From an uncultured Spirochaetota bacterium (lineage in GTDB: Bacteria; Spirochaetota; Brevinematia; Brevinematales; JAOACQ01), in assembly GCA_963768055.1 (NCBI GenBank), contig CAVYGN010000002.1, positions 800,001 to 864,000 on the forward strand: a stretch of DNA of 64,000 nt, written 5' to 3'. The translations under genes were made by a program, and so were the position numbers. The notes beneath the pieces are model-generated. The model ran no database searches. It was not told the DNA's origin and was given only the letters and a program-made list of their open reading frames with translations. Position 1 is the first letter of the stretch. Every line of letters begins with the position of its first letter. Of the stretch, positions 19,007 through 52,550 are shown in pieces.

Positions 19007-19022
19007 ATGTTTTTTTCCCTTG

Positions 19023-19051
19023 TTGCAAAAATATCCTCATCGCTTTACAAT
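19023..19051 (+). promoter_or_regulatory. Putative sigma70 promoter of the mraY operon
   Basis: TTGCAA-N17-TACAAT. Confidence 0.55.
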
Positions 19052-19089
19052 GAAAGTATCCTTCATCTGTTAACATTAAGGATTGGTTT

Positions 19090-20187: not shown

Positions 20188-20199
20188 GAGGAGGTCGGC

Positions 20200-21847: not shown

Positions 21848-21925
21848 TAAAAACCATTATTATTTAAAGAAATAAGCTTGATTAAACCGATATTTTGTAA
21901 GAGAAAATTCGAAAGGGAGTTCGAT

Positions 21926-23170: not shown

Positions 23171-23188
23171 CTGCGATTGGAGTGATGA

Positions 23189-25360: not shown

Positions 25361-25390
25361 TTTCAAATTTCGTCATTCTATGGAGATGTA

Positions 25391-26188: not shown

Positions 26189-26195
26189 TATCCGG

Positions 26196-29701: not shown

Positions 29702-29713
29702 TAAAAGGCCCCT

Positions 29714-30628: not shown

Positions 30629-30642
30629 AAATTATCCCCATT

Positions 30643-37846: not shown

Positions 37847-40259
37847 AGAATTGGAAAATATCCTGCATGAAAAGGTTTACGATGACAGCCGGCCTGATTT
37901 CAACTATATTTGGGGTAAACTGGAAATAGATAAAATATTTAAGGAGGAGCATATGCCTGAAAAGAAAGGGGGGAGTAAGATTTTAGTTTGGGTTGTTAGT
38001 TTCGTGGTTGTCGCGGCGATAGGATGGTACGGCCTGACTAAAATTTCCACTATTAAAAATAATGAAAAAATAGAAAAAGGCGAGGCCATTGTCGTTTCTC
38101 TTGTCGTCGGTGATGTGCAGGTAAAAAAAATGGGGTCGACAGGATGGAGGGTAATTAATGTCGAAGATACTCTCCAGATGGGGGACACTGTAAAAACAGG
38201 AGCTGATTCCTATTGTGAATTACAGATGGTTAACAGGGGACTGTTCCGTATCGAAGGGGCTTCACAGCTTTACCTTGCGACTCTTGTCAGCAAGGACGAT
38301 AAAGTTAATTCAAGAATGAAACTTGACAAAGGAACGGTAGCCCTAAAGCCTAACAAGCTTAAAGAGGGCGAGAATTTCGAGGTTGAAACCTCTACGGCTG
38401 TAGCTGCGGTAAGAGGAACTAAATTCAGCGTGAATGTAGGTGAAAACGGCGATACTAAAGTGGCCGTTGACGAAGGTAAAGTCGCCGTAAAACCGGTTAT
38501 CAAATCGATAGACGAAGCCCAGCAGAAGGGAACTGTCGATGCAAAGGCTTCCGAGATACTGAAAACTGAAATAGAGAAGCCGGTCGAAGTCAACCCCGGT
38601 GAGGAAATCAATCTTGAAACTAAAAAAGTTGAAGCTATGGATAAGTCGGTCGAAAAGGTCATAGACCAGGTATCGACCAAACAAGAGGGAAAGCAGATTA
38701 CGGAAGACACTCTTTCCAAGGTGACAGTTACCGAGGAAAAGACCGGAAAAGGCAAAACTGTTGAAAAAGAGGTTACGGGATCGGAAATGATAGCAATAAA
38801 GGTCCAGGAAGACCTCAAGCCTGAAGTAGTGAATAAAGCCCCTGTGAACGGAGAGGAAAGCATTGTCGGATCGATCGTCCAGAAGCAGGAAATTTCTGAA
38901 GATTCCAAGAAAACAATGGACAATCTTAATGAAAGCAACATCATTAATAAAGTTGCCGACATGGTCATGATCCGCTTCGAATCCACACCCGCAGGAGCCG
39001 ATGTTTATATGGATGATGTAAAACTCGGCGTATCACCCCTCAATACTCTTGTTGAAAGAGGGAAAATTGCGAAAATTCGGATGACCAGGGATGGTTACAC
39101 AGAAGATGTAAAAGAAGTAACCATCGGTGGAAATTTAACTGTCAATTCAATATTGACCCAGGTGCAGACAATTCAAACGAATGAAACAAATCAAACGAAT
39201 GCGATTGTTGAAACTAATACGAACTCAGTGAAGACCAATGCTCCTCAGGTGACGGCAGAAGTTAAAAAACTGCCAGGGGAGCTTGATTGGCAGAAACCTC
39301 TGGCCATGAAAATCGAATCGGCCTACAAAGAACCCGCAGATCCTGTTGTATACGGCGGTAAAATATTCCTTACAAAAAATAACAGGCTGTTTATTGTTTC
39401 TCTTGAAGGTAAACTCCTGAAATCTGTAGCAGTTGTCGAGGACGGAGTTAAGCTTACAAGGCCCTCTGTCAGCGACGGCATTGTGTATGTAGGCTCAGAT
39501 AACGGCGGCGTTTACGCCTATTCAACTCACGGTGATTTAATGTGGAAGAAAGACGCCGGCAGCGAAAAATACGGCGCAAGTCCGACTGCTGCAAACGGGA
39601 TTGTGGCTGTACCGTCAATCGATAAGGGTATAATGATATTCGATAAAACCGGCGAATTGTTAACGCAAATCGAATCAGACTCTGTATACTCGGCTCCTTT
39701 GATTCTTAATGATGGGAAAACCCTCATATATGCGACTGAAAGCGGTAATATAGTTTCATACGATATAGAAGGGAAATCTCAGAACTGGAGCAAGGGGTAT
39801 AATGAACGGTTCCTATATCCTCTTGTCGGTGATGAAACTATCATAGCTATTGCAAGGGCAAGCGGCAAGGTCCTGGCTGTCAAACCGGCTGATGGTTCGA
39901 TATTGTGGACTGAGGTCTTTGACGAAATACAAAAAACAAGGATAAATCCCCGTTTTGTCGCCGGAAAATTAATTCTTGCAAATAATGATACTAAATCGAT
40001 GGTGTTTGTAGTTGACGCGATGTCGGGAAGAGTTATTTCCAAGACCTCATTTGATAACGAAACGATTGTGGCGCCGTTTATCCTTGACAAATTCGTCTAT
40101 ATAGGCACGGAATCAGGCAAGGTCTATTCGTATAATGTCAATAAAAAGAAGTATGAATGGACGTATAAATCCTCCGGTAATGCCATTTCTCTTGTCGTTG
40201 CAGACAAGGATGGTATTTACGCCCTGTCATTGGACGGCATGCTGAGGATAGTTAAATAA
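37833..40259 (+). CDS. Anti-sigma-like membrane protein: TM + FecR + PEGA + PQQ/BamB-type beta-propeller
   Basis: One TM segment; GDTVKTG and TAVAAVRGTKF (FecR); STPAGADVYMD (PEGA); VYVGSDNGGVYAY...WK repeats; overlaps the 3' end of the ECF sigma gene. Confidence 0.8.
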   Translation: MTKNEELENILHEKVYDDSRPDFNYIWGKLEIDKIFKEEHMPEKKGGSKILVWVVSFVVVAAIGWYGLTKISTIKNNEKIEKGEAIVVSLVVGDVQVKKMGSTGWRVINVEDTLQMGDTVKTGADSYCELQMVNRGLFRIEGASQLYLATLVSKDDKVNSRMKLDKGTVALKPNKLKEGENFEVETSTAVAAVRGTKFSVNVGENGDTKVAVDEGKVAVKPVIKSIDEAQQKGTVDAKASEILKTEIEKPVEVNPGEEINLETKKVEAMDKSVEKVIDQVSTKQEGKQITEDTLSKVTVTEEKTGKGKTVEKEVTGSEMIAIKVQEDLKPEVVNKAPVNGEESIVGSIVQKQEISEDSKKTMDNLNESNIINKVADMVMIRFESTPAGADVYMDDVKLGVSPLNTLVERGKIAKIRMTRDGYTEDVKEVTIGGNLTVNSILTQVQTIQTNETNQTNAIVETNTNSVKTNAPQVTAEVKKLPGELDWQKPLAMKIESAYKEPADPVVYGGKIFLTKNNRLFIVSLEGKLLKSVAVVEDGVKLTRPSVSDGIVYVGSDNGGVYAYSTHGDLMWKKDAGSEKYGASPTAANGIVAVPSIDKGIMIFDKTGELLTQIESDSVYSAPLILNDGKTLIYATESGNIVSYDIEGKSQNWSKGYNERFLYPLVGDETIIAIARASGKVLAVKPADGSILWTEVFDEIQKTRINPRFVAGKLILANNDTKSMVFVVDAMSGRVISKTSFDNETIVAPFILDKFVYIGTESGKVYSYNVNKKKYEWTYKSSGNAISLVVADKDGIYALSLDGMLRIVK

Positions 40260-40277
40260 ATAAAAGTTAAAATATTT

Positions 40278-40314
40278 AAACCCCGCTCCTTAAAAAAGGG
40301 CGGGGTTTTTTTTT
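40278..40314. terminator. Rho-independent terminator, possibly bidirectional
   Basis: AAACCCCGC...GCGGGG followed by T9. Confidence 0.85.
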
Positions 40315-40334
40315 AAATAAATATTTTATTAAAG

Positions 40335-40385
40335 TTGACAAAAGTGTTAGTTTTTTGTATTATTTGTTAGTAAATATTAACTAAC
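40335..40385 (+). promoter_or_regulatory. sigma70 promoter with adjacent TetR-type palindromic operator
   Basis: TTGACA-N17-TATTAT followed by the inverted repeat GTTAGT-N8-ACTAAC (40366-40385). Confidence 0.7.
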
Positions 40386-40403
40386 CTATTATAGGAACAT
40401 CTT

Positions 40404-40985
40404 ATGGAATTAACCAGGAGACAGGAAGAGATCATCTTAACCTCGATGAGGATCATTACACTTGAGGGCATTACCGCCCTTACTACGAAAAATATATCAG
40501 GTCAAATTGGAATATCCGAGGCCGCTTTATACCGTCATTTTAAAAATAAGGATGAGATACTGCTTTCAATTATGTTATTATTTGAGAAAAAAGCCTTCGA
40601 ACTCCTTGAAAGCGCATGCAGGCCCGAGTTTTCAGATTTTGAAAATATATATAATATACTGATCAGGAGGTGCAGGGATTTTGTGGAAAATCCAGCTCTT
40701 GTAACTGTAATACTTTCTGAAGAAATATTCCCGCAGAATTCGAATTTATCCGGAAAGATCCATGATATCATGAAAGTGAACCATGATAAGATATGTTTTC
40801 TTATCGAGGAAGGCCAGAGAAAGGGTGAGATCAGGGGGGATATACCGAAAGAACAGTTCTTTAACCTCATGATCGGATCTTTCAGATTTCTTGTGAATCA
40901 ATGGAGAATATCTCAATTCGGCTTCAATCTTGAGGAAAAGTTCATTGATATCTGGGAAGCGTTCAAAAAAATCATTAAAAATTAA
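40404..40985 (+). CDS. TetR/AcrR family transcriptional regulator
   Basis: LTTKNIS.QIGISEAALYRHFKNK HTH. Confidence 0.92.
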   Translation: MELTRRQEEIILTSMRIITLEGITALTTKNISGQIGISEAALYRHFKNKDEILLSIMLLFEKKAFELLESACRPEFSDFENIYNILIRRCRDFVENPALVTVILSEEIFPQNSNLSGKIHDIMKVNHDKICFLIEEGQRKGEIRGDIPKEQFFNLMIGSFRFLVNQWRISQFGFNLEEKFIDIWEAFKKIIKN

Positions 40986-41007
40986 GAATTTAATTAAGGA
41001 GAAAAAG

Positions 41008-41796
41008 ATGCTGGATGTATCGTTGAAAAAAACTCTTAACCGGGAAAATATGAAAAACGAGGTGAAAGAGCTCATAAAAGCCCTTAAAAGGGCTGAAAAA
41101 AGGGATGATTTTGAAAAAGTAAAAGAACAATTCAAAACGGTGATCGGCAGCGCCGACCCGCTAGCGATAGCCCTGGCTGAAAACGAACTCGCCAGGGAAG
41201 GATTTTCGATGGAAGACATGATGAGCGCTTGCGACATTCATTTGATGCTTTTTAAGGAATCGATCGATAACTCGAAAATAAAAGTGGAAGAATCTCACCC
41301 GCTGAATCAATTCATAAAGGAGCATAAGTGGATCCTCGGCTTGATGGAAAGGCTGAAGGATGAAGCCAGGGACAGTCGTTCCGAAGAAGGTTTGACGATA
41401 TCATCTTCAAGGATTAATATATTGGAGAAGATTGCCGGGAAGCTTATGGAAACCGAGAACCATAATGTAAGGCAGGAAAATACCCTTTTCCCGGTCCTTG
41501 AAAAACATGGCATTGAACAGCCTCCTGCAGTCATGTGGGCAGAACATTCTGAAATGAAAGAACAGAAAAAAGAGATTATTAATCTTATCAGGGATTGTAA
41601 AAAACTTATGAAAGAAGAATTTTCAAATAAATTGGAGAGAATGGCGGCAGCCCTTATGGAAAAATTTTCCATGCATTCGCGAAAGGAGCAGCATATACTT
41701 TATGTGACTGCCCTTGAAGTAATTACTGAAAATGAATGGAAAGAGATCAAAGAGGAATGCGACAATCTCGGGTATTTTGAAATGGCCATTGTTTAA
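41008..41796 (+). CDS. DUF438 / hemerythrin-like domain protein
   Basis: IALAENEL, CDIH..LF, HPL..F..EH, H..RQEN.LFP.LE.HG...PP.VMW.EH. Confidence 0.82.
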   Translation: MLDVSLKKTLNRENMKNEVKELIKALKRAEKRDDFEKVKEQFKTVIGSADPLAIALAENELAREGFSMEDMMSACDIHLMLFKESIDNSKIKVEESHPLNQFIKEHKWILGLMERLKDEARDSRSEEGLTISSSRINILEKIAGKLMETENHNVRQENTLFPVLEKHGIEQPPAVMWAEHSEMKEQKKEIINLIRDCKKLMKEEFSNKLERMAAALMEKFSMHSRKEQHILYVTALEVITENEWKEIKEECDNLGYFEMAIV

Positions 41797-41811
41797 AGAT
41801 TGGAGGATATT

Positions 41812-41976
41812 ATGAATTTAAAAGAATTACCGGTTGATGCCATAGAGGCTGTTCTTGACAGCCTTCCCGCGGATATTTCTTTTGTGGACTCAGAATATAG
41901 GGTGAAATATTTCAATACTCCTTCAAAGGGGCGCCTTTTCCAAAGGCTTCTCGATGATGACGGGGGCGGGAAATGA
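41812..41976 (+). pseudogene. Truncated PAS (PAS_10-like) domain gene
   Basis: GGAGG RBS, then MNLKELPVDAIEAVLDSLPADISFVDSEYRVKYFNTPSKGRLFQR; similarity stops just before the tRNA-like repeat. Confidence 0.72.
41958..41971 (+). repeat. Degenerate copy of the tRNA-Leu 3' end (att-like)
   Basis: TGACGGGGGCGGGA versus TGCCGGGGGCGGGA at 50769 (13/14). Confidence 0.55.
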
Positions 41977-43028
41977 AAGCGGTTAAAGTCGCTTTTTTTG
42001 ACGCCAAGTCTTACGATAGCGAGTATTTTGATAAATTGAATGTAAATTTCGGTTTCGAACTAAAATACTTTAAGGGCCATCTTACCTCCGACACTATCCC
42101 TATAGCGAATGGTTTCAATGCCGTGTGTCTTTTTGTCAACGACCAGGCGGATGCAAAAATAATCTCCGATTTGAGGAATTTCGGGATCGGCCTTATTGCG
42201 ATGCGGTGCTCGGGATATAACAATGTTGACCTCAATGCTGCTTATAAAAACATCCATGTAGTTCGTGTACCTGCTTATTCGCCTTATGCTGTTGCAGAAC
42301 ATGCCGTGGCGTTGATGCTTACGCTTAACAGGAAAACGCATAAGGCATATTATCGCAACCTTGACAAGAATTTCACCATCACAGGGCTTCTGGGTTTCGA
42401 TATGTACAACAAGACTGCAGGTATTATAGGCACCGGTCAGATCGGTAAAGTTCTTATCCATATACTAAGGGGTTTCGGAATGAGGGTTCTTGCTTATGAT
42501 TCTTTCCCCAATGAGGAATTGGCAAAGAAAGAGGGTTTTGAATATGTAACCCTTGATGATCTTTACAGCCAGTCCGACATTATCTCCCTTCATTGCCCTC
42601 TTACTCCGGAAACCCAGTATATGATAGATGAAAATTCCATCGGCCGGATGAAAGACGGGGTAATGATCATAAACACAAGCAGAGGAAAGCTTATAAAAAC
42701 CAAGGCATTGATCGGCGGACTCAAGGACAAAAAAATAGGATATGCCGGTCTCGATGTCTATGAAGAGGAAAGTGATTATTTTTTCGAAGACAAATCGGGG
42801 GATGTCCTTGATGACGACGTGCTGGCGCGGCTCCTGACTTTTAATAACGTTCTGGTAACATCACACCAGGCTTTTTTTACACAAGAGGCCCTGGCCAATA
42901 TCGCGCAGACAACTCTTCAGAACATAAAGGATTATTTTGACGGCAAGCCGCTCGTAAACGAGATTTGCTATCAATGCGGACAGGTAAGGGAAAATTGCCT
43001 GAAGGTAAAGGACGGTAGATGCTTTTAA
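41973..43028 (+). CDS. ldhA: D-lactate / D-2-hydroxyacid dehydrogenase
   Basis: RCSGYNNVD, RVPAYSPYAVAEH, GTGQIG, INTSRG, LDVYEEE, TSHQAFFT. Confidence 0.9.
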   Translation: MKAVKVAFFDAKSYDSEYFDKLNVNFGFELKYFKGHLTSDTIPIANGFNAVCLFVNDQADAKIISDLRNFGIGLIAMRCSGYNNVDLNAAYKNIHVVRVPAYSPYAVAEHAVALMLTLNRKTHKAYYRNLDKNFTITGLLGFDMYNKTAGIIGTGQIGKVLIHILRGFGMRVLAYDSFPNEELAKKEGFEYVTLDDLYSQSDIISLHCPLTPETQYMIDENSIGRMKDGVMIINTSRGKLIKTKALIGGLKDKKIGYAGLDVYEEESDYFFEDKSGDVLDDDVLARLLTFNNVLVTSHQAFFTQEALANIAQTTLQNIKDYFDGKPLVNEICYQCGQVRENCLKVKDGRCF

Positions 43029-43045
43029 TGCGGGGAATGGACCCG
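43029..43045 (+). repeat. Highly degenerate copy of the tRNA-Leu 3' end
   Basis: TGC-GGGGAATGGACCCG versus TGCCGGGGGCGGGACTCG (13/18, one gap), immediately after the ldhA stop. Confidence 0.3.
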
Positions 43046-43060
43046 GCCTAAGGAAGTTTT

Positions 43061-43357
43061 ATGACGGACAATATCAATAGCTCAGCATTGCTTGTTATGG
43101 ACGTTCAGGAAGTAACCGTGAACAGGCTGGAAAAGAAGGATGAATACACGCATCTTTTTCTTGCAGGAATAGCGACAAGCGGGGTGATACTGTCAACTGT
43201 AAGAGAAGCCGCCGACAAGAATTATCAGATTACAATAATATCCGATCTTTGCGTAGATTTCGAACCCGAGATCCATAAGGTTTTAATGGAAAAAATATTT
43301 CCAAGGCAGGCTCTCGTGATAACGGTCGAAGATTGTTTCAGGCAATTACAGGCCTGA
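43061..43357 (+). pseudogene. Isochorismatase-family gene with a large in-frame internal deletion
   Basis: ALLVMDVQ N-terminus is joined after ~25 aa to LAGIATSGVILSTVREAAD...IFPRQA; only 98 aa. Confidence 0.75.
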
Positions 43358-46300
43358 TAAAGCCTGGCGCGCACTCTCAAGCTCTTCCGAAAGGTCGGTC
43401 TTTTCAAGTTCGATTACGGCCTCGTTAAAATAACTCCTGGCTTTATTGAACTTCTTCCGCATTTTATAAAGGATGCCGAGATTCATTGCTGATCGTCCAT
43501 GGTGGCTATAGATGCCGCATTCTTTGGCAATCTCCAGGCTTTTTTCGAAGAACCTGACTGACCGTCCCCAGGCGAATGGCATGTTCATTATGATGAACGG
43601 CAGGTTTTTCAGGAGAATGTGTGCGGGAAACTTTACTTTTCCGGCGGCGATTCCCATGTATAAAGATCCAAGAATGGAAGTAAAATTGGTTGTATAATAT
43701 GACCAATTAGCCTTTTCATATGAAGCGATTAATTTCCCGAGTTTTTTTATTCCCTTATCGTATTCATGATTTTTAAAAATAAGGAGTAATGAACGTAAAG
43801 CTTCTATCAGTGTTAGTTGACTTAAAAGGTGAACATTCCTGAAATAGCCTTCACAATTTTTAATGACTTCCTCCGCTTCATTATACCGGCCAAGGTTTAT
43901 TAATGCGATAGCTAACATTGGCTTATTAAAATTCAAATATAATGGCTCTACAGTTACCTTGGATTTGCTTGCAGAATCCATTAATTCGATAACTTTTATC
44001 CAGTTTTTGGCATAGTATTCAATATAGTAAAATGCTCCATATGCAAGCGAAATACATGTCGGATTATTCCTTTTCTTTCCAAAATCAAGAATTTCCTGTC
44101 CTATTTGACTGGCATGCATTATTTCTCCGCGGCAGGCAAGGCAAATACCTTTTCCAAAAGCCGATTTTGCGAAAAGGTAGGGTTCTTCAGGTATCTCCCG
44201 GGAAAGCTTCATCCCTGCATCGCCATGTTCGATACACTCCGCCGGGTGCCCGCGAGTTATTCGGTCTGAAAGCCAGCAATTAGCATAGGCAAGAGCCCTT
44301 TTGTCGCCGGATTCCCGGGCAAGGCGAAGGGCTTCGTACTGATATTTCATCGAAAGATCATTTTCCATCACAAAATCGAGGGCATATCCAAGCTCAGCGT
44401 AGAAGAGGGCCTTTGCTCCTTTATCGGGTATTGAATCAGCGTCCCTGACATGTTTCTTGAATAAACCGGTCCAGTCAAGGAATGTTCCGAGGTAGTAATG
44501 CGTGAATCCCCAGTCGTTCAAAAACCGGATGAGAACTGTGTTCTCCTCTTCAGTCCGGCCCGGTTTTGCTATTAAAATGTCGTATGCCTGGCGGTAGAAG
44601 TTGTTAGCTTCTGCCGATGCATACGACGCCATGCTCTTCCTGCCCGCCTTGACAAGGTATTCTACCGCCTTGTCAGAATCTCCCGATTTCTGGTAGTGGA
44701 AGGCTATAGTCTCGTAGAATTCCTCTATCCTATCCTTGAATACGACTTCCAGGAGCTGTGCTACACGCTGATGAATCGTCCCGCGGTCTTTTTTCAGAAG
44801 CGAGTTGTAAACAACATCGCGCAGTAGCGCGTGCTTGAAGAGGTAGGCTATGTCCGGTTCCCTGGCCTCTTCCCAGATCATACCGACGGATTCAAGGAAC
44901 GCTAAGCAGTCGTCCAGTTCCCGGCTTAATTCCGTGACCCGCTTTAATAGCGAATAATAGAAGGATTGCCCGATTACGGAGGCGGCCTGGAGGACACGTT
45001 TAGCCGTCGGATCGAGCCGGTCTATCCGGGCTGTAATAACTCCCTGGATAGAAAGAGGGATGTCTGTTTCAGTCAGACTGCGTGTCAATTTCCATGCCCC
45101 TTCCTCGAAGGAAAGGGCTTTGGTCTCGATAAGGTTATTGATAATTTCTTCAATAAAGAAGGGCGTGCCGGAAATCTTTTTTATGAAATACTGCATCAAT
45201 TCCCGGGGAACTTTATCCGATTCAAGGAGCGAGGCGATCATGCGTTCCTCGTTATCTGAACCGAGCGGCTGGAGGGCCAGCTCATAGAATTTAAATAATT
45301 CTTTTCCGGAACTTTTTTCGGGGCTGATACTAATGCCAGGCCGATGTAAGCAAAGAAAAACTGCCGGAGCGTCCAATTCTTGAAAAAGTGTCTGCAGAAT
45401 TTCGAGGGAAGAAGGGTCAGCCCAGTGAAGATCATCGAAATAGAAGATGGTTTTACCCGATCGGGCTATCCCGATAACGAGGCTGATTATACTGTTTGAT
45501 ATGTTCATTTTCAGAGAACCGGGGTCGATCCCCTTGGTTTCAGGGTAGTTTATGGAATAAAGGGCCGCAATGAAGGGTATGATGCTTTCCTCCCTGCAGT
45601 ACTGCACGATGCCCTTTAATTTTTGATGGACCTGATCCTTTGAATCGCTTTCCTCTATTGAAAGGAGCCTGTTTACGAAGTCTATCCAAAACGAATATGC
45701 GATGTTCTCCGCATGTGAATAGGCGAAGGCCTCAAACCACCTGTAGCCGTCCATAGATTCAGCCCGTATCCTGATTTCGGAAACAAGCCGGCTCTTCCCG
45801 GTCCCCGCATCGCCCGAGACGGATATTATTGAACCTTTTCCCGAGGCCAGAGCCTGCATTGCACTTACAAGCTCGTCTATTTCCTGCTCACGCCCGATAA
45901 ACCGGGCTTTACGGCCCCGAAGCCGCCTGAATGTGTCGGCTGCCTTTTTATGTCCTATGATCCTGTAGGGGTTGAGAGATTCCGACTTACCCTTCACCGA
46001 AACAGGCGGCAAAGCCTCGAATTCGAAGTGCCAGTCCGCGAGTGTGAAGGTATCATGGCCGACAACGATTTCGCCCTGCTTTGCTACCCCGGAAAGCCTG
46101 GAAGCGACATTTACCGTATCTCCGATTATCTTTTCAGAGCCCTTTTCGATGTCGAGATCTCCTGAAACGACCATCCCGGTGTTTATCCCGGTATGCATGG
46201 CGAGTTTCCTGCCTATTTTCGCCTCAAGCTCGGGGGTGTTGAGCGCGTCGACAGCCGCATGTATATCCATGGCGGCATGGATCGCCCTGACCGCGTCGTC

Positions 46301-46618
46301 TTCATTTGCCTGCGGTATCCCGAAGACCGCCATGACGCAGTCTCCGATAAACTTGTCGACCCGGCCTCCGTATTTATTTACTATGGAGGCCGATTTGCTC
46401 AATATCCCCTGCATTATGTCTTTTACTTCCTCGGGGTCGAGCCGCTCCGACATGGCCGTGAAGCCGGAGAGATCGGCGAAGAAGATTGTGGCCTGCTTTT
46501 TCTCCTCTACGGGGGAGTCCTGCGCTTTTGAAAATCCCTCTTCCGAAAGTTTAGTGCCGCATTCGCTGCAGAATTTGTTCGTGTCAGGATTATACGTCCG
46601 GCAGATAATACAGATCAT
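43346..46618 (-). CDS. Zinc-ribbon + class III nucleotidyl cyclase + AAA/STAND ATPase + TPR-like protein
   Basis: CxxC...CxxC; FADLSGFT, KFIGDCVMAVFG, GDTVNVASRL; GDAGTGKSRL, FDDLHWAD, FKHAL; helical C-terminus. Confidence 0.9.
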   Translation of the reverse strand: MICIICRTYNPDTNKFCSECGTKLSEEGFSKAQDSPVEEKKQATIFFADLSGFTAMSERLDPEEVKDIMQGILSKSASIVNKYGGRVDKFIGDCVMAVFGIPQANEDDAVRAIHAAMDIHAAVDALNTPELEAKIGRKLAMHTGINTGMVVSGDLDIEKGSEKIIGDTVNVASRLSGVAKQGEIVVGHDTFTLADWHFEFEALPPVSVKGKSESLNPYRIIGHKKAADTFRRLRGRKARFIGREQEIDELVSAMQALASGKGSIISVSGDAGTGKSRLVSEIRIRAESMDGYRWFEAFAYSHAENIAYSFWIDFVNRLLSIEESDSKDQVHQKLKGIVQYCREESIIPFIAALYSINYPETKGIDPGSLKMNISNSIISLVIGIARSGKTIFYFDDLHWADPSSLEILQTLFQELDAPAVFLCLHRPGISISPEKSSGKELFKFYELALQPLGSDNEERMIASLLESDKVPRELMQYFIKKISGTPFFIEEIINNLIETKALSFEEGAWKLTRSLTETDIPLSIQGVITARIDRLDPTAKRVLQAASVIGQSFYYSLLKRVTELSRELDDCLAFLESVGMIWEEAREPDIAYLFKHALLRDVVYNSLLKKDRGTIHQRVAQLLEVVFKDRIEEFYETIAFHYQKSGDSDKAVEYLVKAGRKSMASYASAEANNFYRQAYDILIAKPGRTEEENTVLIRFLNDWGFTHYYLGTFLDWTGLFKKHVRDADSIPDKGAKALFYAELGYALDFVMENDLSMKYQYEALRLARESGDKRALAYANCWLSDRITRGHPAECIEHGDAGMKLSREIPEEPYLFAKSAFGKGICLACRGEIMHASQIGQEILDFGKKRNNPTCISLAYGAFYYIEYYAKNWIKVIELMDSASKSKVTVEPLYLNFNKPMLAIALINLGRYNEAEEVIKNCEGYFRNVHLLSQLTLIEALRSLLLIFKNHEYDKGIKKLGKLIASYEKANWSYYTTNFTSILGSLYMGIAAGKVKFPAHILLKNLPFIIMNMPFAWGRSVRFFEKSLEIAKECGIYSHHGRSAMNLGILYKMRKKFNKARSYFNEAVIELEKTDLSEELESARQALSGL

Positions 46619-46665
46619 ATAATCTCCTTATAATTTCCGAATGCTGTTCAACTAAAACAAGAACT

Positions 46666-46694
46666 ACTCTAATGAGATGGATAATATTTGTCAA
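46666..46694 (-). promoter_or_regulatory. Putative sigma70 promoter of the cyclase gene
   Basis: TTGACA-N17-TAGAGT on the minus strand. Confidence 0.5.
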
Positions 46695-46710
46695 GCCCTA
46701 AAAATGATCT

Positions 46711-46726
46711 TGCAGGGGCAGGACTC
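46711..46726 (+). repeat. Degenerate copy of the tRNA-Leu 3' end
   Basis: TGC-AGGGGCAGGACTC versus TGCCGGGGGCGGGACTC (14/17, one gap), intergenic. Confidence 0.45.
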
Positions 46727-46815
46727 TTGCATAATTTGGCGGATAACTTTGCCTTATTTCGAGGATATTGGCAAGCAAATGGTATAAACACCACAACCTT
46801 AATATTCGGCGGAAA

Positions 46816-47802
46816 TTATATTCCCGATAATAATTCCATTGCCTCTTTTTCTTTTTCAGCTAACTTCACAAAAATTTCAGATGCCTGGTTTATATATTCA
46901 ACATTTTGTGTTTCCCCTGTTTTGTTAAACAATGTTGAAACCTTTGTCCAGAAATCTGCTGATTCAGAGAATATCTTATATGCTTCATCAATTTCCCTTA
47001 TATTCAGCAATTTATAGCTTTCCTTCAAAAAGCCCCTGTATAAATTTCTAAACAAAGCTCCGCCCGTTCCTCCTTTTTCCATGAGCATTGCGGTTGTTTT
47101 AAAATCCCTTTCAATATTCCTGCTGTTTTTAAACCATTTTTTGATTTCTTCACTCGCTTTTAATACTCCTTTATATCCGATATTCTTTATCGGTGGATTC
47201 AAATAATCCGTTGCATTATTTATTATTGCCGTAATGACGGATTCCTTAAGGTTATAATCTTTTTTAAAGCCTCGAATCGTATAACTTAAATTCTTTGAAG
47301 ACATGGGACCTTTTTCATTTCTCGCCAGCTCAAGATTTTTTAATGATGTTTTTACTTTGCTGCCCTGTTGTTTTGTATCAACCAGATAAGCGAAGTTGTC
47401 ATCATATCCGTACATCGCCACATAGTGCCCGGCAAAGTGTATTTTATTAGTGAAATAATCCAAATGATAACAATCAAGCTTAAGACCAACTGCAATATTT
47501 CTATCGATATTATTTTTAACATTTTTCCAGGCTTTTTTTGATGATGCGGTTTCCTCAATTTCCAGCTTTAAATTCAAATTTTTAACAATGTTTTGAGTTA
47601 AAGCATCCGGTTTTATTCTTCCGCCGATAAAAGGGAAATCCATTATTTTCATATTCCAGAATATAAATCCCAATCCCTCTCCTAAACCAAAAAGCATAGG
47701 CTCGGAAAGATCGATTCCAATTTGAATTAGAAGCGACCCGGTTGAGGTAGTTTCACAATGCTGACCGTTATACGGTTTAAAATCTTTGATTATGTTTTCC
47801 AT
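46816..47802 (-). CDS. BtrH N-terminal domain / DUF4872 family protein (papain-like fold)
   Basis: GQHCETT, SEPMLFGLGEGLGF, LDCYHLDY, HFAGHYVAMYGYD, GTGGALFR. Confidence 0.82.
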   Translation of the reverse strand: MENIIKDFKPYNGQHCETTSTGSLLIQIGIDLSEPMLFGLGEGLGFIFWNMKIMDFPFIGGRIKPDALTQNIVKNLNLKLEIEETASSKKAWKNVKNNIDRNIAVGLKLDCYHLDYFTNKIHFAGHYVAMYGYDDNFAYLVDTKQQGSKVKTSLKNLELARNEKGPMSSKNLSYTIRGFKKDYNLKESVITAIINNATDYLNPPIKNIGYKGVLKASEEIKKWFKNSRNIERDFKTTAMLMEKGGTGGALFRNLYRGFLKESYKLLNIREIDEAYKIFSESADFWTKVSTLFNKTGETQNVEYINQASEIFVKLAEKEKEAMELLSGI

Positions 47803-47896
47803 ATTCTCCCCTTTCAAATCAAAAGCAGTATTATTATATAAAGTTCTCTCTTTTTTATCTCCTTGTTTTGTTTATTACTGATTATACAACATATTA

Positions 47897-47916
47897 CCTG
47901 ACAGCATTATGTCAGG
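47897..47916. promoter_or_regulatory. Palindromic operator upstream of the BtrH-like gene
   Basis: CCTGACA-GCATTA-TGTCAGG perfect inverted repeat. Confidence 0.65.
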
Positions 47917-47958
47917 GTATAAAAATTCCCGTTAAAAATGAGCAAACTTTTGATCCCC

Positions 47959-47967
47959 GCCGGGGGC
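47959..47967 (+). repeat. Short copy of the tRNA-Leu 3' end
   Basis: GCCGGGGGC (9/9), intergenic between the BtrH upstream region and the LuxR remnant; weak on its own. Confidence 0.3.
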
Positions 47968-47989
47968 ATCTGCGTCATCTGCGCGAACT

Positions 47990-48470
47990 TCAGGAAACTA
48001 TGGACGATATCCTGTCTTCCGCCTTTTCACTTTTTTGAAACACGCGGTTGATCAAATCTATCTTGCTTTTCGCTTTTGTTTTTGATAAATGCTATAAATA
48101 TGATTACGGACGGTCAGGACTGAAATTTTCAGAGCCGATGCCGTCATTTTATTTGAATAGCCCCTCGCTATCAGATCCACGATTTCCTTTTCCCTGGCCG
48201 TCAATCCATATTGGCTGGAAAAGCTGCCTGGATCCGTTTCCATTGTCAGTTGTGTTTTATCGGAAAAAAAGTACTTATAGAAAAAAATAACATTCAGGAG
48301 GTTCAACATAAAATAATAAAGATTTATAAAAGAAACAGGACTTAAACTACTGCTGAAATAATAATTCAAGGAATATTCCAATATCCAGACAGGTATAAAA
48401 GTGATATTATAACCCATGAAAACTAACAATACTTTTTTCTTTTCCCTGATCTTGATATTCTTTAACTGAC
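47990..48470 (-). pseudogene. 5'-truncated, frameshifted membrane-associated LuxR-type regulator
   Basis: YGLTAREKEIVDLIARGYSNK...TVRNHIYSIYQK; a 1-nt shift restores TKAKSKIDLIN; only two TM segments remain upstream. Confidence 0.75.
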
Positions 48471-48559
48471 TGCGGAATCTACGGCCGGAGAATGGCGGTA
48501 TACTTTTACGGGAAAAACGGGACAATAGTCTGCCGGGGCTTGTCCCGGCATATCCGTTT

Positions 48560-48577
48560 TGCCGGGGGCGGTACTCG
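48560..48577 (+). repeat. att-like direct repeat of the tRNA-Leu 3' end
   Basis: TGCCGGGGGCGGTACTCG versus TGCCGGGGGCGGGACTCG at 50769-50786 (17/18). Confidence 0.8.
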
Positions 48578-48694
48578 CGCCTCATTTAAGGCGTTTTTCG
48601 CTGCCGTAAAAATCAAAAAACATTTGCATTAATTAATTCATTATATTATTATTTATAAAACATAATCTCCTTGTATATAATGAGTTAGGAGGAT

Positions 48695-50821
48695 ATGAAT
48701 ATAAATGTAACTATGGAGGTTAAAATGGCTAAGAATCTTTCAAATGGTTTTAGTAAAATTGCAGGAGGATTTGATCATAGTTTAGCGCAGAAAAATGACG
48801 GTACGTTATGGGTAACGGGAAGAAACAGATATAGCCAGCTTGAAACCGGAAATATTAATATTTTTTACAACTGGGTGCAGGTGTTAAGCGACATCCGGTC
48901 TGTTACAGGAGGAGGTTCTCATAGTTTAGCCCTGAAAATTGACGGTACGTTATGGGCGACGGGTAAAAACGAATACGGCCAGCTCGGCAACGGGAATAAT
49001 GAGGATGCCTACTACTGGGTTAAAGTACTCAGCGGGGTCAGTCTCGTTGACGGAGGGGAGTTTCACAGCTTGGCGTTGAAAAGCGATGGTACTTTATGGG
49101 TGACGGGGAGAAACGAGTGTGGCCAACTCGGCAACGGGAATAATAATGACACCGGGAAATGGTTGCAGGTATTAAGCGAAGTCAGTTCTATGGCTGCGGG
49201 ATCCAGTTATACTTTAGCGCTGAAAAATGACGGCACGTTATGGGCGACAGGAAGGAATGAGTATGGGCAGTTTGGTACAGGGAATCATAATGATACCAGC
49301 AACTGGGTGCAGGTATTAAGCGGGGTCAGTTCCATGGCTGCAGGATATTATCATAGTTTAGTGTTGAAGAATGACGGCACGTTATGGGCGGCTGGAGTTA
49401 ACCACAATGGCCAGCTTGGAACCGGGAATAATAATGATACCAGCAGCTGGGTGCAGGTATTAAGCGGGGTCAGTTCCATGGCTGCGGGATATTATCATAG
49501 TTTAGTGTTGAAGAATGACGGCACGTTATGGGCGGCTGGCGATAATAGACATGGCCAGCTCGGCATGGATTCTAATAATACCAACAACAACTGGGTGCAG
49601 GTATTAAGCGGGGTCAGATCCATGGCTGCGGGATATTACCATAGTTTGGCGCTGAAAAGTGACGGCACGTTATGGGCGGCCGGGAATAACCACAATGGCC
49701 AGCTTGGCACCGGGAATGATAGTAATGCCGGCAGGTGGGTCCAGGTTTTAAACGGTGTCAGTTCAATCGCCGCAGGATATTACCATAGTTTGGTGCTGAA
49801 AAATAACGGTACGCTATGGGTAGCGGGAGAAAACTCTGCCGGGCAGCTTGGAACGGGAAACGGTATTGAATCCAACAACTGGGAACAAATTGCAAATATC
49901 ATCGCTTCCTTTGCAGGAGGATTTGATCATAGCCTGGTGTTGAAAATTGACGGTTCCTTGTGGGTAACGGGGAGAAACCAATATGGCCAGCTTGGCGTGG
50001 GGAATAATAATTATGCCGGCAGATTGGTGCAGGTATTAAGCGGAGTCAATTCCATCGCTGCAGGGGATAGTTTTAGTTTGGCTTTGAAGAATGACGGCAC
50101 ATTATGGGCGACGGGCAGGAACGAATATGGGGAACTTGGCATCGGGAATAATAATGATACCGTCAGCTGGGTACAGACATTAAGCGGAGTCAGTTCCGTT
50201 GCCGCGGGGGATAATTTTAGTTTGGCGTTGAAAAGTGACGGCACATTGTGGGCGGCGGGAAATAACAAAAATGGCCAGCTTGGCACCGGGGATAATAATA
50301 ACGCCGTCAGCTGGGTGCAGGTTTTAAACGGCGTCGGTTCCATTGCCGCAGGATATTATCATTGCTTAGCTTTAAAAAATGATGGTACATTGTGGGCGTC
50401 AGGAGATAACGAATATGGCCAGCTTGGCACCGGGAACCAAAATGATGCCGGTAAATGGGCGCAGGTTTTAAGCGGCGTCGGTTCCATTGCCGCAGGGATG
50501 TATCATAGTTTAGCCTTGAAAAGTGACGGCACGTTGTGGGTGACGGGAAATAACGAATATGGCCAGCTTGGCACGGGCAATAATAACAATATCAAAAAAT
50601 GGGTGAAAGTATTAAGCCAGGTCGGTTCCATAGCAGCCGGAACTGATCATAGTTTGGCGCTGAAGAACGACGGCACAATGTGGATGGCAGGGGATAACCG
50701 TTATGGCCAGCTTGGAACCGGGAATAATAAAAATTCAAACTCTTGGATAAAAGAGGCTATAGATTCTCTGCCGGGGGCGGGACTCGAACCCGCACAGGCA
50801 ATGACGCCCGAGGGATTTTAA
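48695..50821 (+). CDS. RCC1-repeat protein (14 repeats)
   Basis: 14 copies of AAG..HSLALK.DGTLW..G.N.YGQLG.G; stop codon lies inside the antisense tRNA-Leu; putative promoter TTGCAT-N17-TATTAT at 48624-48652. Confidence 0.92.
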   Translation: MNINVTMEVKMAKNLSNGFSKIAGGFDHSLAQKNDGTLWVTGRNRYSQLETGNINIFYNWVQVLSDIRSVTGGGSHSLALKIDGTLWATGKNEYGQLGNGNNEDAYYWVKVLSGVSLVDGGEFHSLALKSDGTLWVTGRNECGQLGNGNNNDTGKWLQVLSEVSSMAAGSSYTLALKNDGTLWATGRNEYGQFGTGNHNDTSNWVQVLSGVSSMAAGYYHSLVLKNDGTLWAAGVNHNGQLGTGNNNDTSSWVQVLSGVSSMAAGYYHSLVLKNDGTLWAAGDNRHGQLGMDSNNTNNNWVQVLSGVRSMAAGYYHSLALKSDGTLWAAGNNHNGQLGTGNDSNAGRWVQVLNGVSSIAAGYYHSLVLKNNGTLWVAGENSAGQLGTGNGIESNNWEQIANIIASFAGGFDHSLVLKIDGSLWVTGRNQYGQLGVGNNNYAGRLVQVLSGVNSIAAGDSFSLALKNDGTLWATGRNEYGELGIGNNNDTVSWVQTLSGVSSVAAGDNFSLALKSDGTLWAAGNNKNGQLGTGDNNNAVSWVQVLNGVGSIAAGYYHCLALKNDGTLWASGDNEYGQLGTGNQNDAGKWAQVLSGVGSIAAGMYHSLALKSDGTLWVTGNNEYGQLGTGNNNNIKKWVKVLSQVGSIAAGTDHSLALKNDGTMWMAGDNRYGQLGTGNNKNSNSWIKEAIDSLPGAGLEPAQAMTPEGF

Positions 50822-50854
50822 GTCCCTTGTGTCTACCAATTCCACCACCTCGGC
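50769..50854 (-). tRNA. tRNA-Leu (TAA)
   Basis: GCCGAGGTGGTGGAATTGGTAGACAC-AAGGGA-CTTAAAA-TCCCT, long variable arm, GCGGGTTCGAGTCCCGC. Confidence 0.95.
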
Positions 50855-50863
50855 ACATTGAAT

Positions 50864-50936
50864 AGGGGATGGTCGGAATTGAACCGACGAATAGCGGTTT
50901 TGCAGACCGCCGCCTTAGCCACTTGGCTACATCCCC
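50864..50936 (-). tRNA. tRNA-Cys (GCA)
   Basis: GGGGATG/CATCCCC acceptor, anticodon loop CTGCAAA, U73 discriminator. Confidence 0.95.
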
Positions 50937-50948
50937 ATAGGGGATAAA

Positions 50949-50977
50949 ATTATAATAAGCTTTGGGGGCTGTGTCAA
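50949..50977 (-). promoter_or_regulatory. Consensus sigma70 promoter of the tRNA-Cys/tRNA-Leu operon
   Basis: TTGACA-N17-TATAAT, perfect consensus. Confidence 0.85.
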
Positions 50978-51174
50978 TTTTCTTTAAGACCGGCTTTAAT
51001 TGTTTTACTTAAGAAATCCGAAAACATCTGCGTAATTTCGGCCGCCTTTTCCTTAACGACCATTTTGTGGCCCGATTGAAAAACGACTATAGTATCCGGC
51101 GTTTCTTCCACGAACTCTACAAGAAACATGTTGACAGTAAATTTAGTGTTGTTCAATCGCGTCAATTCGATCAT
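50974..51174 (-). CDS. flbD: Flagellar protein FlbD
   Basis: MIELTRLN...VN..LVE..EETPDT; downstream of flgE. Confidence 0.9.
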   Translation of the reverse strand: MIELTRLNNTKFTVNMFLVEFVEETPDTIVVFQSGHKMVVKEKAAEITQMFSDFLSKTIKAGLKEN

Positions 51175-51185
51175 ATCCTAACCGG

Positions 51186-52550
51186 CTATCTCTTAAGGTT
51201 GAGGATTTCCCTTAGCATGTCGTCGGAAGTCGTTACAACCCTTGAATTTGCCTGGAATCCCCTTTCTGTTACAATCATATCCGTAAAGGTTTCGGAAAGG
51301 TCGACATTGCTCATTTCAAGCGCTCCGGCATAAATCCTTCCCCTTCCCTGAGTACCGGCAGTACCGGTATTCGCCATGCCCGAGTTGTTGGACTCCGTAT
51401 AGAGGCTTTCCCCTTCCTTGGTCAGACCCATCGGGTTTGTGAAGGCGGCGATGGCCACCTGTCCGATGGTTCTGCGTTCGCCGTTCGAATAAGACCCGGT
51501 GATAGTCCCTGAATCGTCAATCTTGAAGGATTCGAGGTAAGACATTTCATAGCCGTCCTGGAAATAGGCTTTTGTAGTCGTAGGAGAGCTGAATTGCGTT
51601 ACCGAGTCAGTCACCTGGCCTACATTTCCGAGCTCGAGATTGAAATTCCTGGTTTGCCCGTCGGGGAGCGTGTAAGCGATAGTTGTAGTAAGCTGTCCCG
51701 TGTTAAGGGTCGTTGGAGCCGCTCCGGCCCCCTCCTGTATGGAGAGAAGGGTTCCGTTAGTATTGAAATTCATAAGAAGTGAATTATTGGAATCGGCTTT
51801 GACGGTCCCGACATTTACCTTGATGGCGTTGTCGGGGATGCCGTCGATCGTCACATTTGCTTTCCACTGGTTCAGTCCCATTTTCTGAAAATTAACGACC
51901 ATTCTTCTTTTTGTTCCGTATCTGTCCACTACGTCTATGCTCGTCGAGTGAGTGTTCTGGATAAGTTCGTCAGGTGTAGGATTGGGCCCTAGAAGCGGGG
52001 TTTTCAGATCAAGGTTGCTCTTCATCCTGACAACTCCGGTTTCCCTGGCTTCAAGCTTTTCCATTATAGGTATTTTCATATCGTCAAGGGGCGCAGCGGT
52101 ATTGATGAAGCGGTCTCCGTTCTGAAGCGTTACGGCATTCCAGCCCTGAACCTTCAAACCGTTAGGGTTTACAAGAAGGCCGTCCCTGTCAAGTAAAAAG
52201 TTTCCCGATCTGGTATAGAAAGTCCTGTCCCCCAGCTTCATAGTAAAAAAGCCTTCGCCTGTAATTGCAAGGTCCGTATTTTTGCCGGTGGTTTGAATAC
52301 TCCCCTGGTTCATCAGCGTATCGATGCTTGCAATGGACATGCCCAGGCCTACCTGTTCGGGATTCAAGCCGCCCCGTTCCTCGGAGGGTTTAGCCGCTCC
52401 TGTAAGCGTCTGCGATAAAATATCCTGGAAGGTCATCCTTCCTTTCTTAAATCCGGTTGTATTTACATTTGCTACGTTGTTACCGATAACATCCATCCTG
52501 GCCTGATGGTTTTGAAGGCCGGATACTGCGGAATAAAGCGATCTCATCAT
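51186..52550 (-). CDS. flgE: Flagellar hook protein FlgE
   Basis: MMRSLYSAVSGL, IGNNVANVNTTGFK, LEMSNVDL, RGFQANSR. Confidence 0.96.
   Translation of the reverse strand: MMRSLYSAVSGLQNHQARMDVIGNNVANVNTTGFKKGRMTFQDILSQTLTGAAKPSEERGGLNPEQVGLGMSIASIDTLMNQGSIQTTGKNTDLAITGEGFFTMKLGDRTFYTRSGNFLLDRDGLLVNPNGLKVQGWNAVTLQNGDRFINTAAPLDDMKIPIMEKLEARETGVVRMKSNLDLKTPLLGPNPTPDELIQNTHSTSIDVVDRYGTKRRMVVNFQKMGLNQWKANVTIDGIPDNAIKVNVGTVKADSNNSLLMNFNTNGTLLSIQEGAGAAPTTLNTGQLTTTIAYTLPDGQTRNFNLELGNVGQVTDSVTQFSSPTTTKAYFQDGYEMSYLESFKIDDSGTITGSYSNGERRTIGQVAIAAFTNPMGLTKEGESLYTESNNSGMANTGTAGTQGRGRIYAGALEMSNVDLSETFTDMIVTERGFQANSRVVTTSDDMLREILNLKR

Follow-up and report, generated by a model that had tools for sequence, protein, structure and literature searches.

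A variable region on the 3' end of a Spirochaetota tRNA-Leu(UAA) gene, probably built by site-specific integration and then decayed to its cargo

Integrons and the clusters of attC sites lacking integron-integrases (CALINs) are arrays of mostly promoterless cassettes, set in one orientation between attC sites and read from a common promoter, the CALINs having no integrase. Cis-mobilizable elements (CIMEs) are decayed elements that retain attL and attR, and the cited part of the work on streptococcal ICESt1/ICESt3-type elements of the integrative and conjugative kind (ICEs), as well as on tandems of integrative and mobilizable elements (IMEs) and CIMEs at tRNA 3' ends, describes tandem accretion at an att site that includes a gene end (PMC5704250). 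The ssrA islands of Dehalococcoides are portrayed in the sections cited here as tandem, set apart by direct repeats (20 bp) of the 3' end of ssrA with the insertion point in the T-loop, and in some cases without an integration module, and the authors suggest that the latter are cis-mobilizable (PMC3146451). For the tycheposon islands of Prochlorococcus, the corresponding part of a preprint reports growth at the tRNA-proximal end, with scattered partial tRNAs and degenerated fragments (10.1101/2020.12.28.424599). In this report we focus on the stretch between ldhA and a tRNA-Leu(UAA) gene in a genome from an uncultured Spirochaetota family. A sequence-only reading of this DNA had proposed that the block 40315-50854 is an integrase-less, integron-like array of six gene-sized cassettes captured at the tRNA, or else tandem islands eroded to their cargo. 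Our analysis leads us to conclude that a part of the block, 43029-50768, is probably a flexible genomic island on the 3' end of tRNA-Leu(UAA), built by site-specific integration and later decayed. By analogy, the locus would be a tRNA-anchored island of a known type, to be set beside CIMEs, the ssrA islands of Dehalococcoides and those built by tycheposons.

The window is the whole 64,000-nucleotide stretch analysed, C2:800001-864000 of the two-contig 3.69-Mb genome G000, and coordinates without a contig prefix are window positions. G001-G004 are four congeners, G006 and G008 belong to other genera of the same Spirochaetota family, and the repeat census took in 12 genomes of that family. Pfam was run on 46 open reading frames (ORFs) of the window, and tRNAs were called with ARAGORN and Rfam. 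The features that carry the argument are the following:

50768-50855, minus strand: tRNA-Leu(UAA) (anticodon taa in the gene), called by ARAGORN and by Rfam (RF00005, 56.6 bits)
50864-50936, minus strand: tRNA-Cys(GCA), called by ARAGORN and Rfam, marking the conserved far side of the anchor
50769-50786, plus strand: core at the tRNA, the 18-mer TGCCGGGGGCGGGACTCG, that is, the last 18 nt of tRNA-Leu and the proximal att-like site
48560-48577, plus strand: distal direct repeat of the core (17/18), in the same orientation as the tRNA core
48531-48559, plus strand: hairpin (48531-48550) and spacer immediately left of the distal repeat, with a blastn match in G003
48578-48594, plus strand: distal end of the putative inserted unit, a terminator-like hairpin followed by a T run
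48695-50821, plus strand: RCC1-repeat gene (Pfam, 14 repeats, GC about 49%), sole gene of the 2.2-kb unit

The tRNA-Leu(taa) gene, which anchors the island, points its 3' end into the variable region, and tRNA-Cys lies upstream of it and is transcribed together with it; the pair is kept in G001-G004. An Rfam scan of 40000-51200 at E<=0.1 returned nothing besides these two tRNAs.

The central observation is that 48560-48577 is the only real extra copy of the tRNA-Leu 3' end. The core covers the discriminator base, the 3' strands of acceptor and T-stem, and five T-loop nucleotides, and it is identical or differs by at most 1 nt in the tRNA-Leu(taa) of all five genus genomes. The anchor, its last 18 nt and the same-orientation copy at 48560 with 17 of 18 matches, all named in the sequence-only reading, proved correct. 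At three mismatches or fewer, the window holds three matches to the 18-mer against 0.01 expected: tRNA-Leu itself, 48560 and a 15/18 site inside aspS at 10002. Genome-wide on both strands, matches with 0, 1, 2, 3, 4 and 5 mismatches number 1, 1, 1, 2, 15 and 133. We regard the 48560 copy as the only real one because the matches with two or three mismatches are tRNA-Leu(cag), tRNA-Leu(gag) and the aspS site; it is the sole match with at most one mismatch in 3.69 Mb besides tRNA-Leu(taa), and the single non-tRNA match with at most two in 7.4 Mb (both strands). Among the 12 family genomes, a non-tRNA copy of the core at two mismatches or fewer occurs only in G000 and G003. Our reading of 48560 is that of a displaced original tRNA 3' end, an attL-type remnant. 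The underlying classification of tRNA att segments is reportedly that of Williams. The T-loop-to-3'-end segment is, according to the cited part of a Klebsiella survey, the commonest kind of tRNA attB, or recombination segment (10.1101/2020.11.02.365908).

The flanks of the repeat point the same way. On the left, blastn aligns 48542-48575 with positions 11022-11056 of the G003 locus (L013) at 94% over 35 nt including the core, and in G003 this counterpart of part of the hairpin and of the 18-19 nt left of the copy directly follows an intact tRNA-Leu. In the simplest history, the hairpin left of 48560 would be the native trailer of tRNA-Leu, and G003 would represent the uninserted state for the event that brought in the RCC1 unit. 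On the right, the first 12 nt of 48578-48594 (CGCCTCATTTAA) match the right flank of the distal repeat of G003 (48554-48589 against L013 8156-8191, 83% over 36 nt including the core). That extra copy in G003 has 16 of 18 matches and lies 2.9 kb from the tRNA; in both holders of a copy, one gene lies between copy and tRNA, RCC1 in G000 and a TonB-dependent receptor in G003. On its left the G000 junction matches one G003 junction, on its right the other, and such a recombinant flank pattern is exactly what crossing-over inside the core would yield.

Strain-level data, namely Logan contigs of four public metagenome runs examined over 46000-52000, place a breakpoint at the same spot. Seven sequencing runs were listed, none with RNA, and the best DNA run shares 0.30 of the sampled words. 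A 945-nt peat metagenome contig with 21 differences in 661 nt (about 97% identical) follows the window from 49219 down to 48559, continues with 149 letters that do not fit here, and resumes at 47920, beside the palindrome of a BtrH-like gene described below. In this related strain, other DNA thus stands in place of the LuxR remnant and the hairpin (47921-48558). Of the two breakpoints, one falls at the edge of the 48560 copy; the second, at 47920, is not at a repeat. Contigs of three runs span RCC1 into the tRNA, and the RCC1-tRNA joint is therefore common to strains.

We propose the following mechanism. DNA would have entered by site-specific, integrase-type recombination at the core, from T-loop to tRNA 3' end, each entry restoring the tRNA and pushing the old 3' end and its trailer hairpin outward. 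The latest recognisable event would be the entry at the core of the unit 48578-50768, beginning with CGCCTCATTTAA and now down to one RCC1 gene; the displaced 3' end would be the 17/18 copy at 48560, with the old trailer hairpin still on its left. Ordinary islands have the integrase between cargo and tRNA. Here the recombinase and the tRNA-proximal arm would have been deleted later, the deletion clipping RCC1 by its last 10-14 or so codons, and the gene now runs on into the tRNA. The RCC1 ORF is in fact complete except for these native codons, as judged by alignment with the G001 and G002 homologues, and its last 17 codons and stop lie antisense inside the tRNA-Leu gene (from 50768), a 3' end that fits a later loss of the DNA between RCC1 and tRNA. 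It is the complement of tRNA-Leu (50768-50821) that encodes the C-terminal 17 residues, LPGAGLEPAQAMTPEGF. Farther out, older material lacks recognisable att sites and is partly broken; it would comprise the LuxR remnant, the BtrH-like gene, the cyclase-STAND gene and an isochorismatase remnant. The repeat and its uniqueness, the flank homologies, the synteny, the strain breakpoint and the lack of a recombinase are observations; an integrase as maker of the junction, the sequence of events and the later loss of that enzyme by deletion are what we infer.

Several points weigh against this reading. Foremost among them, neither the window nor the corresponding interval of any of the five genus genomes contains an integrase, a serine recombinase or a transposase, and the enzyme is therefore postulated, not seen. 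The absence of integrases and transposases from the window had already been remarked and holds in the Pfam search of the 46 ORFs, which gave no match to PF00589, PF00239 or PF07508; likewise, the ldhA-to-tRNA interval of the congeners has no PF00589 match. Genome-wide, 12 PF00589 matches exceed the cut-off, the nearest to the window at C2:960051, and the serine recombinases are three small resolvases, far away, with no large serine recombinase. Nor did a related element with a recombinase and this attP turn up in the 12 family genomes, in genome contigs or in metagenome contigs, an absence that does not exclude one. The exact pattern of core plus CGCCTC arm gave 0 matches in genome contigs and 10 in metagenome contigs, all of which are chance matches, since 0/10 have a tRNA-Leu core upstream. 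In addition, the tRNA-proximal end of the RCC1 unit lacks the arm that the model expects, an absence explained by the deletion supposed above. The strain evidence consists of contigs, with excision and circles outside its reach. Finally, G001 has an RCC1 homologue bracketed by a promoter duplication of 61 nt, with no tRNA repeat; gene-sized insertions in the genus can hence come about by another route, which leaves direct repeats as well.

The synteny of the interval argues for the island. It was established by a DNA search of 40 relatives followed by pairwise blastn. A FecR/PQQ gene, ldhA, tRNA-Leu, tRNA-Cys and flgE follow one another in the same order in 4/4 congeners, and the content between ldhA and tRNA differs in all five genus genomes (G000-G004), up to the tRNA end:

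G000, gap of 7.7 kb: the island described here
G002, gap of about 0.8 kb
G004, gap of about 0.45 kb
G003, gap of about 9.3 kb: desaturase, SDR, methyltransferase, BtrH-like, MFS and TonB-dependent receptor genes
G001, gap of about 36 kb: genes with counterparts at other places in G000, mixed with about 15 kb next to the tRNA whose genes have none there

The similarity of the congeners to G000 restarts exactly at the first base of the tRNA in every genome, while the sequence just outside differs. We considered the 36-kb interval of G001 as one island and rejected this, as it mixes genes located elsewhere in G000 with about 15 kb that G000 lacks. Between tRNA-Cys and flgE, G004 carries about 5 kb (L015 2123-6519) that contains two large ORFs, of 772 and 693 residues; in one congener, then, variability extends to the tRNA pair's 5' side. 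Within G000, whose genome has a GC content of 41.5%, the interval is a mosaic: 44-46.5 kb is at about 50%, 46.6-48.5 kb at about 35% and 49-50.8 kb at about 49%. The variable part of the block spans 43029-50768. Besides RCC1, its genes are as follows:

43061-43357, plus strand: isochorismatase remnant, with a Pfam match to profile positions 110-175 only, also read from the translation
43346-46618, minus strand: class III nucleotide cyclase-STAND ATPase (AAA_16)-TPR protein (Pfam), 1090 residues, GC 46-54%
46816-47817, minus strand: BtrH_N/DUF4872 gene (Pfam), GC about 35%
47897-47916: 20-nt palindrome CCTGACAGCATTATGTCAGG upstream of the BtrH-like gene
47990-48462, minus strand: remnant of a LuxR/GerE multi-transmembrane regulator (Pfam GerE), 5'-truncated and 3'-damaged

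The isochorismatase remnant retains the N-terminal motif and the C-terminal third, the middle being gone, and the LuxR remnant covers about the last 155 of 317 residues, aligning only with the C-terminal half of a 317-residue homologue in G003. The cyclase domain at 43346-46618 is PycC-like according to PADLOC (E 1.6e-22); the gene had no DNA match among the top matches listed for the 40 relatives and is, also by its composition, apparently a strain-specific foreign gene. The BtrH-like gene is 93% identical in nucleotides to its G003 counterpart and 88% to that of G006, against 70-79% for flanking genes. It shows 60-84% amino acid identity (up to 81% in nucleotides) to genes in metagenome-assembled genomes of many phyla, at 76 loci labelled Clostridiales, Nanohaloarchaeota, Patescibacteria, Methanomicrobia, Bacteroidota, Gammaproteobacteria and others, and the similarity ends at the limits of the ORF; it looks like a very widely exchanged single gene. 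The palindrome CCTGACAGCATTATGTCAGG or a close variant stands upstream of the BtrH-like gene in G000, G003 (L013 ~6503-6522) and G006 (L055 4855), and a pattern search gave no match in the other 75 BtrH-like loci; it is probably an operator.

The left part of the block has another history. Its genes are these:

40404-43028, plus strand: ancestral operon, delimited by synteny in relatives and outside the island
40404-40985, plus strand: TetR gene of the operon
40930-41796, plus strand: DUF438-hemerythrin gene of the operon
about 41813-41946, plus strand: truncated PAS gene of the operon
41973-43028, plus strand: ldhA, also of the operon

In G001, TetR directly precedes ldhA. In G006 and G008, a DUF438-hemerythrin gene, a complete PAS gene of 130-148 residues and ldhA follow in a row, preceded in G006 by an additional TetR-like ORF. 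The PAS gene of G000 is truncated, its similarity to the G006 and G008 genes stopping at 41946. Because the TetR/DUF438/PAS/ldhA arrangement recurs, in part or whole, in G001 and in other genera, 40404-43028 is an old operon that suffered an internal deletion and does not represent captured cargo. The gene content over 40260-50821 (TetR, DUF438-hemerythrin, PAS fragment, ldhA, isochorismatase remnant, 1090-residue cyclase-AAA_16-TPR, BtrH_N/DUF4872, GerE/LuxR remnant and 14-repeat RCC1) agrees with the list given from the sequence alone, as shown by Pfam and translations, but the description of these genes as unrelated cargo between repeat copies fails for TetR-DUF438-PAS-ldhA, a conserved operon. 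The terminator placed at 40278-40314 is visible by reading the sequence; it is absent from the list of the terminator/hairpin scan. Elsewhere in the window, tRNA-Ile and tRNA-Ala lie at 14724-14921, within an ORF-poor stretch (~12900-18000) whose nearby ORFs have no Pfam match, which suggests a candidate rRNA operon.

The further copies of the tRNA end on which a cassette array would depend do not rise above background. The site at 41958 matches at 14/18, like 15 four-mismatch sites genome-wide; that at 46710/46711 matches at 13/18 ungapped and 14/18 with one gap; that at 43029 at 10/18 ungapped and 13/18 with one gap; that at 47959 is a 9-mer with 29 occurrences in the genome; and the partial copy at 48531 is one arm of a hairpin. 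For the enrichment test, sites with one gap were counted per strand in sliding 10.45-kb windows (7338 in all, 3982 of them GC-matched). On the plus strand and with one gap allowed, the block holds two extra sites with at least 14 matches (0.25 expected) and five with at least 13 (1.7-1.9 expected). Since 3.4% of GC-matched windows do as well by the first count (at least two sites) and 5.8% by the second (at least five), the five weak copies (41958, 43029, 46711, 47959 and 48531) are near chance level and suggestive at most; with one gap, 175 sites genome-wide reach 14 matches. The motif-enrichment check that had been proposed thus supports 48560 and leaves the weaker copies at background. The 48560 repeat bounds just the inner 2.2 kb of the variable region, and by the same counts there is no significant repeat at its outer edge, 43029. 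As a cassette boundary, 41958 was rejected: it sits at the internal-deletion joint of the ancestral PAS gene, just upstream of ldhA, and a 14/18 site of this type is seen 15 times in the genome. The PAS and LuxR genes are both truncated, as had been noticed (PAS at 41946), but the copy near which PAS would have been cut is at chance level. Comparison with relatives, the other proposed check, gives a similarly divided answer: 43029-50768 varies in all congeners and a strain breaks at 48559, but 40404-43028 is conserved and the 47920 breakpoint lies off the repeats. An integron-like array of six units over 40315-50854 thus finds no support, given an ancestral operon on the left, four or five copies at chance, genes on both strands with promoter-like sites and no site recurring at unit boundaries. 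Tandem islands eroded to cargo, its alternative, fit 43029-50768, with its true repeat, recombinant flanks, breakpoint at the repeat edge and content differing in all five genus genomes.

How the locus compares with the described systems follows from these results. Like integrons and CALINs, it has gene-sized units of unrelated function side by side with no nearby integrase. In contrast to them, it has no repeat family common to the intergenic gaps, with the tRNA-like motif at chance at all boundaries but one and with no attC covariance scan made; the cyclase, BtrH-like and LuxR genes are on the minus strand and RCC1 and ldhA on the plus strand, with promoter-like sites in the gaps; the sole true repeat is tRNA-derived; and several units are broken genes. 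As at other tRNA islands, an intact tRNA stands at the boundary with its 3' end facing the island, a same-orientation repeat is present and relatives differ with a breakpoint at the att site; an integrase gene inside the island is missing. The likeness to CIMEs would lie in the 48560 copy and the tRNA core flanking a single RCC1 gene without integration or transfer genes and, going by what the cited part of that work describes, in newer elements entering at the gene-end site and pushing older ones outward, with recombinant arms at internal junctions. The units here differ in being very small (one gene at tRNA-Leu) and in their host, an uncultured Spirochaetota; mobilisation is putative, no parent ICE or IME or related integrase-bearing element having been found in the genome, the congeners or the collections searched. 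With the ssrA islands, as presented in the cited sections, the locus would share short direct repeats of a small-RNA 3' end downstream, an insertion point in the T-loop, strain variability and, for some of them, the lack of an integration module. It departs from them in its target, a tRNA gene instead of ssrA, in the single repeat at tRNA-Leu, and in having no recombinase of any class, whereas ssrA arrays, by the same sections, mostly keep a serine-recombinase module beside attL. The tycheposon islands, in the part of the preprint cited, are similar in their growth at the tRNA end and their scattered fragments, in that most island DNA is left-behind cargo instead of intact elements and in that heterogeneity is highest beside the tRNA; they differ in phylum and habitat and in their hallmark genes (tyrosine recombinase and replication/primase-helicase module), which the tRNA-Leu locus, whose activity is putative, lacks. 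What is unusual here is the combination of very small att-bounded units with no cognate recombinase in five related genomes.

Among the alternatives, the one that survives best dispenses with a site-specific enzyme: RCC1 would owe its arrival to short-homology recombination, whether Campbell-type or illegitimate, or to some local rearrangement in which 18 nt of the tRNA end chanced to be duplicated, and the interval would be a poorly constrained region, beside a conserved tRNA, in which recombination and deletion build up. The RCC1 homologues lend it some weight. They occur in G001 and G002, with 63-65% amino acid identity, at two other loci that are empty in G000, where gaps of about 190 and 44 bp separate conserved neighbours (C2:785638-785825 and C2:759979-760023). 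The G001 homologue is bracketed by a 61-nt direct duplication of the promoter region of its downstream neighbour (L050 4120-4180 and 6307-6367) in which 21 and 37 nt are exact. In this genus, single genes are thus inserted, with duplications on either side, by at least one route without a tRNA, and a non-enzymatic origin of the 18-nt repeat is therefore given a real share of probability. Moreover, the native 3' ends of the G001 and G002 RCC1 genes hold core-like stretches (...GATGCCGGGATCG... and ...GCGGGAT...) that could supply microhomology for the RCC1-tRNA joint, and no recombinase is present. We still consider this origin unlikely. The duplicated segment is exactly the canonical att block from T-loop to 3' end, G003 has the same core between related flanks and with other cargo, and a tRNA-directed mechanism is indicated by repeats of this kind at three further tRNAs of the genome; besides, 18 nt is short for a RecA-dependent crossover. 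The presence of RCC1 genes at three loci in three congeners does not settle the matter in favour of transposition, as at 63-65% amino acid identity they could be differentially lost paralogues; a protein search in assembled genome contigs gave one distant, uninformative RCC1 match (34%).

A second alternative is a cassette system working in trans, in which copies of tRNA 3' ends with short conserved arms serve as sites, and a recombinase encoded elsewhere inserts, excises and shuffles gene-sized, recombinase-less units at several tRNAs (Leu-UAA, Val-GAC, Ser-UGA and Arg-CCU). It would give spirochaetes of this genus a functional analogue of the integron, anchored on tRNAs, with units of one to a few genes for defence, signalling and carbohydrate use. 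It draws on a census of all 48 tRNAs for same-orientation copies of the last 18 nt with at most two mismatches and at most 60 kb downstream, which revealed integrase-less 3'-end repeats at three further tRNAs, two of them forming arrays, as the sequence-only reading had thought worth looking for:

C1:972674-979021 (L141): tRNA-Val(gac) array, three copies (18/18, 18/18 and 17/18) at 3.07, 4.19 and 6.27 kb from the tRNA
C2:10248-29904 (L142 = 11500-31000): tRNA-Ser(tga) array, three copies (2, 0 and 2 mismatches) at 7.0, 11.7 and 15.4 kb
C1:1356710-1369870 (L143): tRNA-Arg(cct) repeat, a perfect 18-nt copy 13.1 kb away

Other tRNAs of this genome thus do show the pattern imagined at tRNA-Leu, and show it much more cleanly. 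The tRNA-Val units (3.07, 1.12 and 2.09 kb) carry GH11 and DUF4386 genes, a DUF4160/DUF2442 pair and an unknown 445-residue protein; their repeats extend to 49-275 nt, and arms 93-99% identical over 82-123 nt suggest recent events. Unlike the real tRNA, all three tRNA-Val pseudo-copies have a small insertion in common, located in the variable-loop region. The tRNA-Ser(tga) units (7.0, 4.7 and 3.8 kb) show recombinant arm patterns, with a 76%-identical match to the junction (arm, core and arm) further out at C2:10248-10378, and carry two TIR proteins with a TPR-S cyclase, a MerR/aldo-keto-reductase operon, and Fic (PDC-S04) with an AEP-TOTE primase-helicase, the latter assigned by Pfam to the TOTE conflict system and without an accompanying recombinase. 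A motif, TACTGGCAC-N5-TGGCA, which we take to resemble a sigma-54 promoter, occurs six times in L142 (74-96, 2710-2732, 2760-2782, 2963-2985, 6424-6446 and 11388-11410), beside tRNA-Ser unit boundaries; the TACTGGCAC arm sequence is also found in G001, G002, G003 and G004, the examined G004:C6 copies lying away from any tRNA core. That G004:C6 region, with three adjacent tyrosine recombinases, was rejected as an integrase-bearing tRNA-Ser array: it has no tRNA and no core, and matches only the promoter-like arm repeat. The tRNA-Arg(cct) repeat encloses a carbohydrate-use locus with two ABC sugar transporters, GH1, GH12, CBM proteins and a LacI-like/GerE regulator. No PF00589 match falls inside the Val(gac), Ser(tga) or Arg(cct) repeat-bounded regions, and integrases do adjoin tRNA-Ser(gga) and tRNA-Ser(gct), each with 2-mismatch 3'-end copies 43-52 kb downstream.

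These arrays keep mobilisation in trans alive as a minority reading. Recombinase-less units stand at four tRNAs, counting the 2.2 kb at Leu and the 13.1 kb at Arg(cct); a single-gene unit in G003 has its two arms and carries no integrase; 2 kb from tRNA-Val in G001 there is one copy, again integrase-less; and part of the cargo is defence-like (the TIR proteins, Fic/PDC-S04 with AEP-TOTE primase-helicase, and cyclases). Against this, tRNA-Leu has just one real site and not one per unit, units hold broken genes, no recombinase was found linked to any core, the cores occur nowhere else in the genome, and the contigs show no excision product. Decay of ordinary islands together with tandem accretion gives the same picture and is documented, in the cited parts of both works (PMC5704250, PMC3146451). 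We therefore view a trans-acting system at these tRNAs, and its role as a tRNA-anchored analogue of the integron, as improbable, with the very small units and the lack of a cognate recombinase leaving it a modest chance. Chance similarity of the 48560 site in ordinary intergenic and accessory DNA, for which one might invoke a GC-rich motif and the common weaker look-alikes (the 175 sites above), is hardly credible for a copy 2.2 kb from its own tRNA in the same orientation, the single non-tRNA match at two or fewer mismatches in 7.4 Mb where 0.01 per window is expected at three or fewer, with a homologous, homologously flanked copy in G003 and a strain breakpoint at its edge.

Taken alone, the locus is a routine case of tRNA genes seeding variable regions. 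Its interest lies in a before/after pair, with the trailer hairpin on the tRNA in G003 and 2.2 kb away behind a displaced 3' end in G000, which shows how islands grow and then erode until single cargo genes are left, in an uncultured Spirochaetota lineage that has been little studied. Considered with the tRNA-Val and tRNA-Ser arrays, it raises the question of whether small att-bounded units are debris or are still moved in trans. If such units do move in trans, the cassette idea would be extended beyond integrons.

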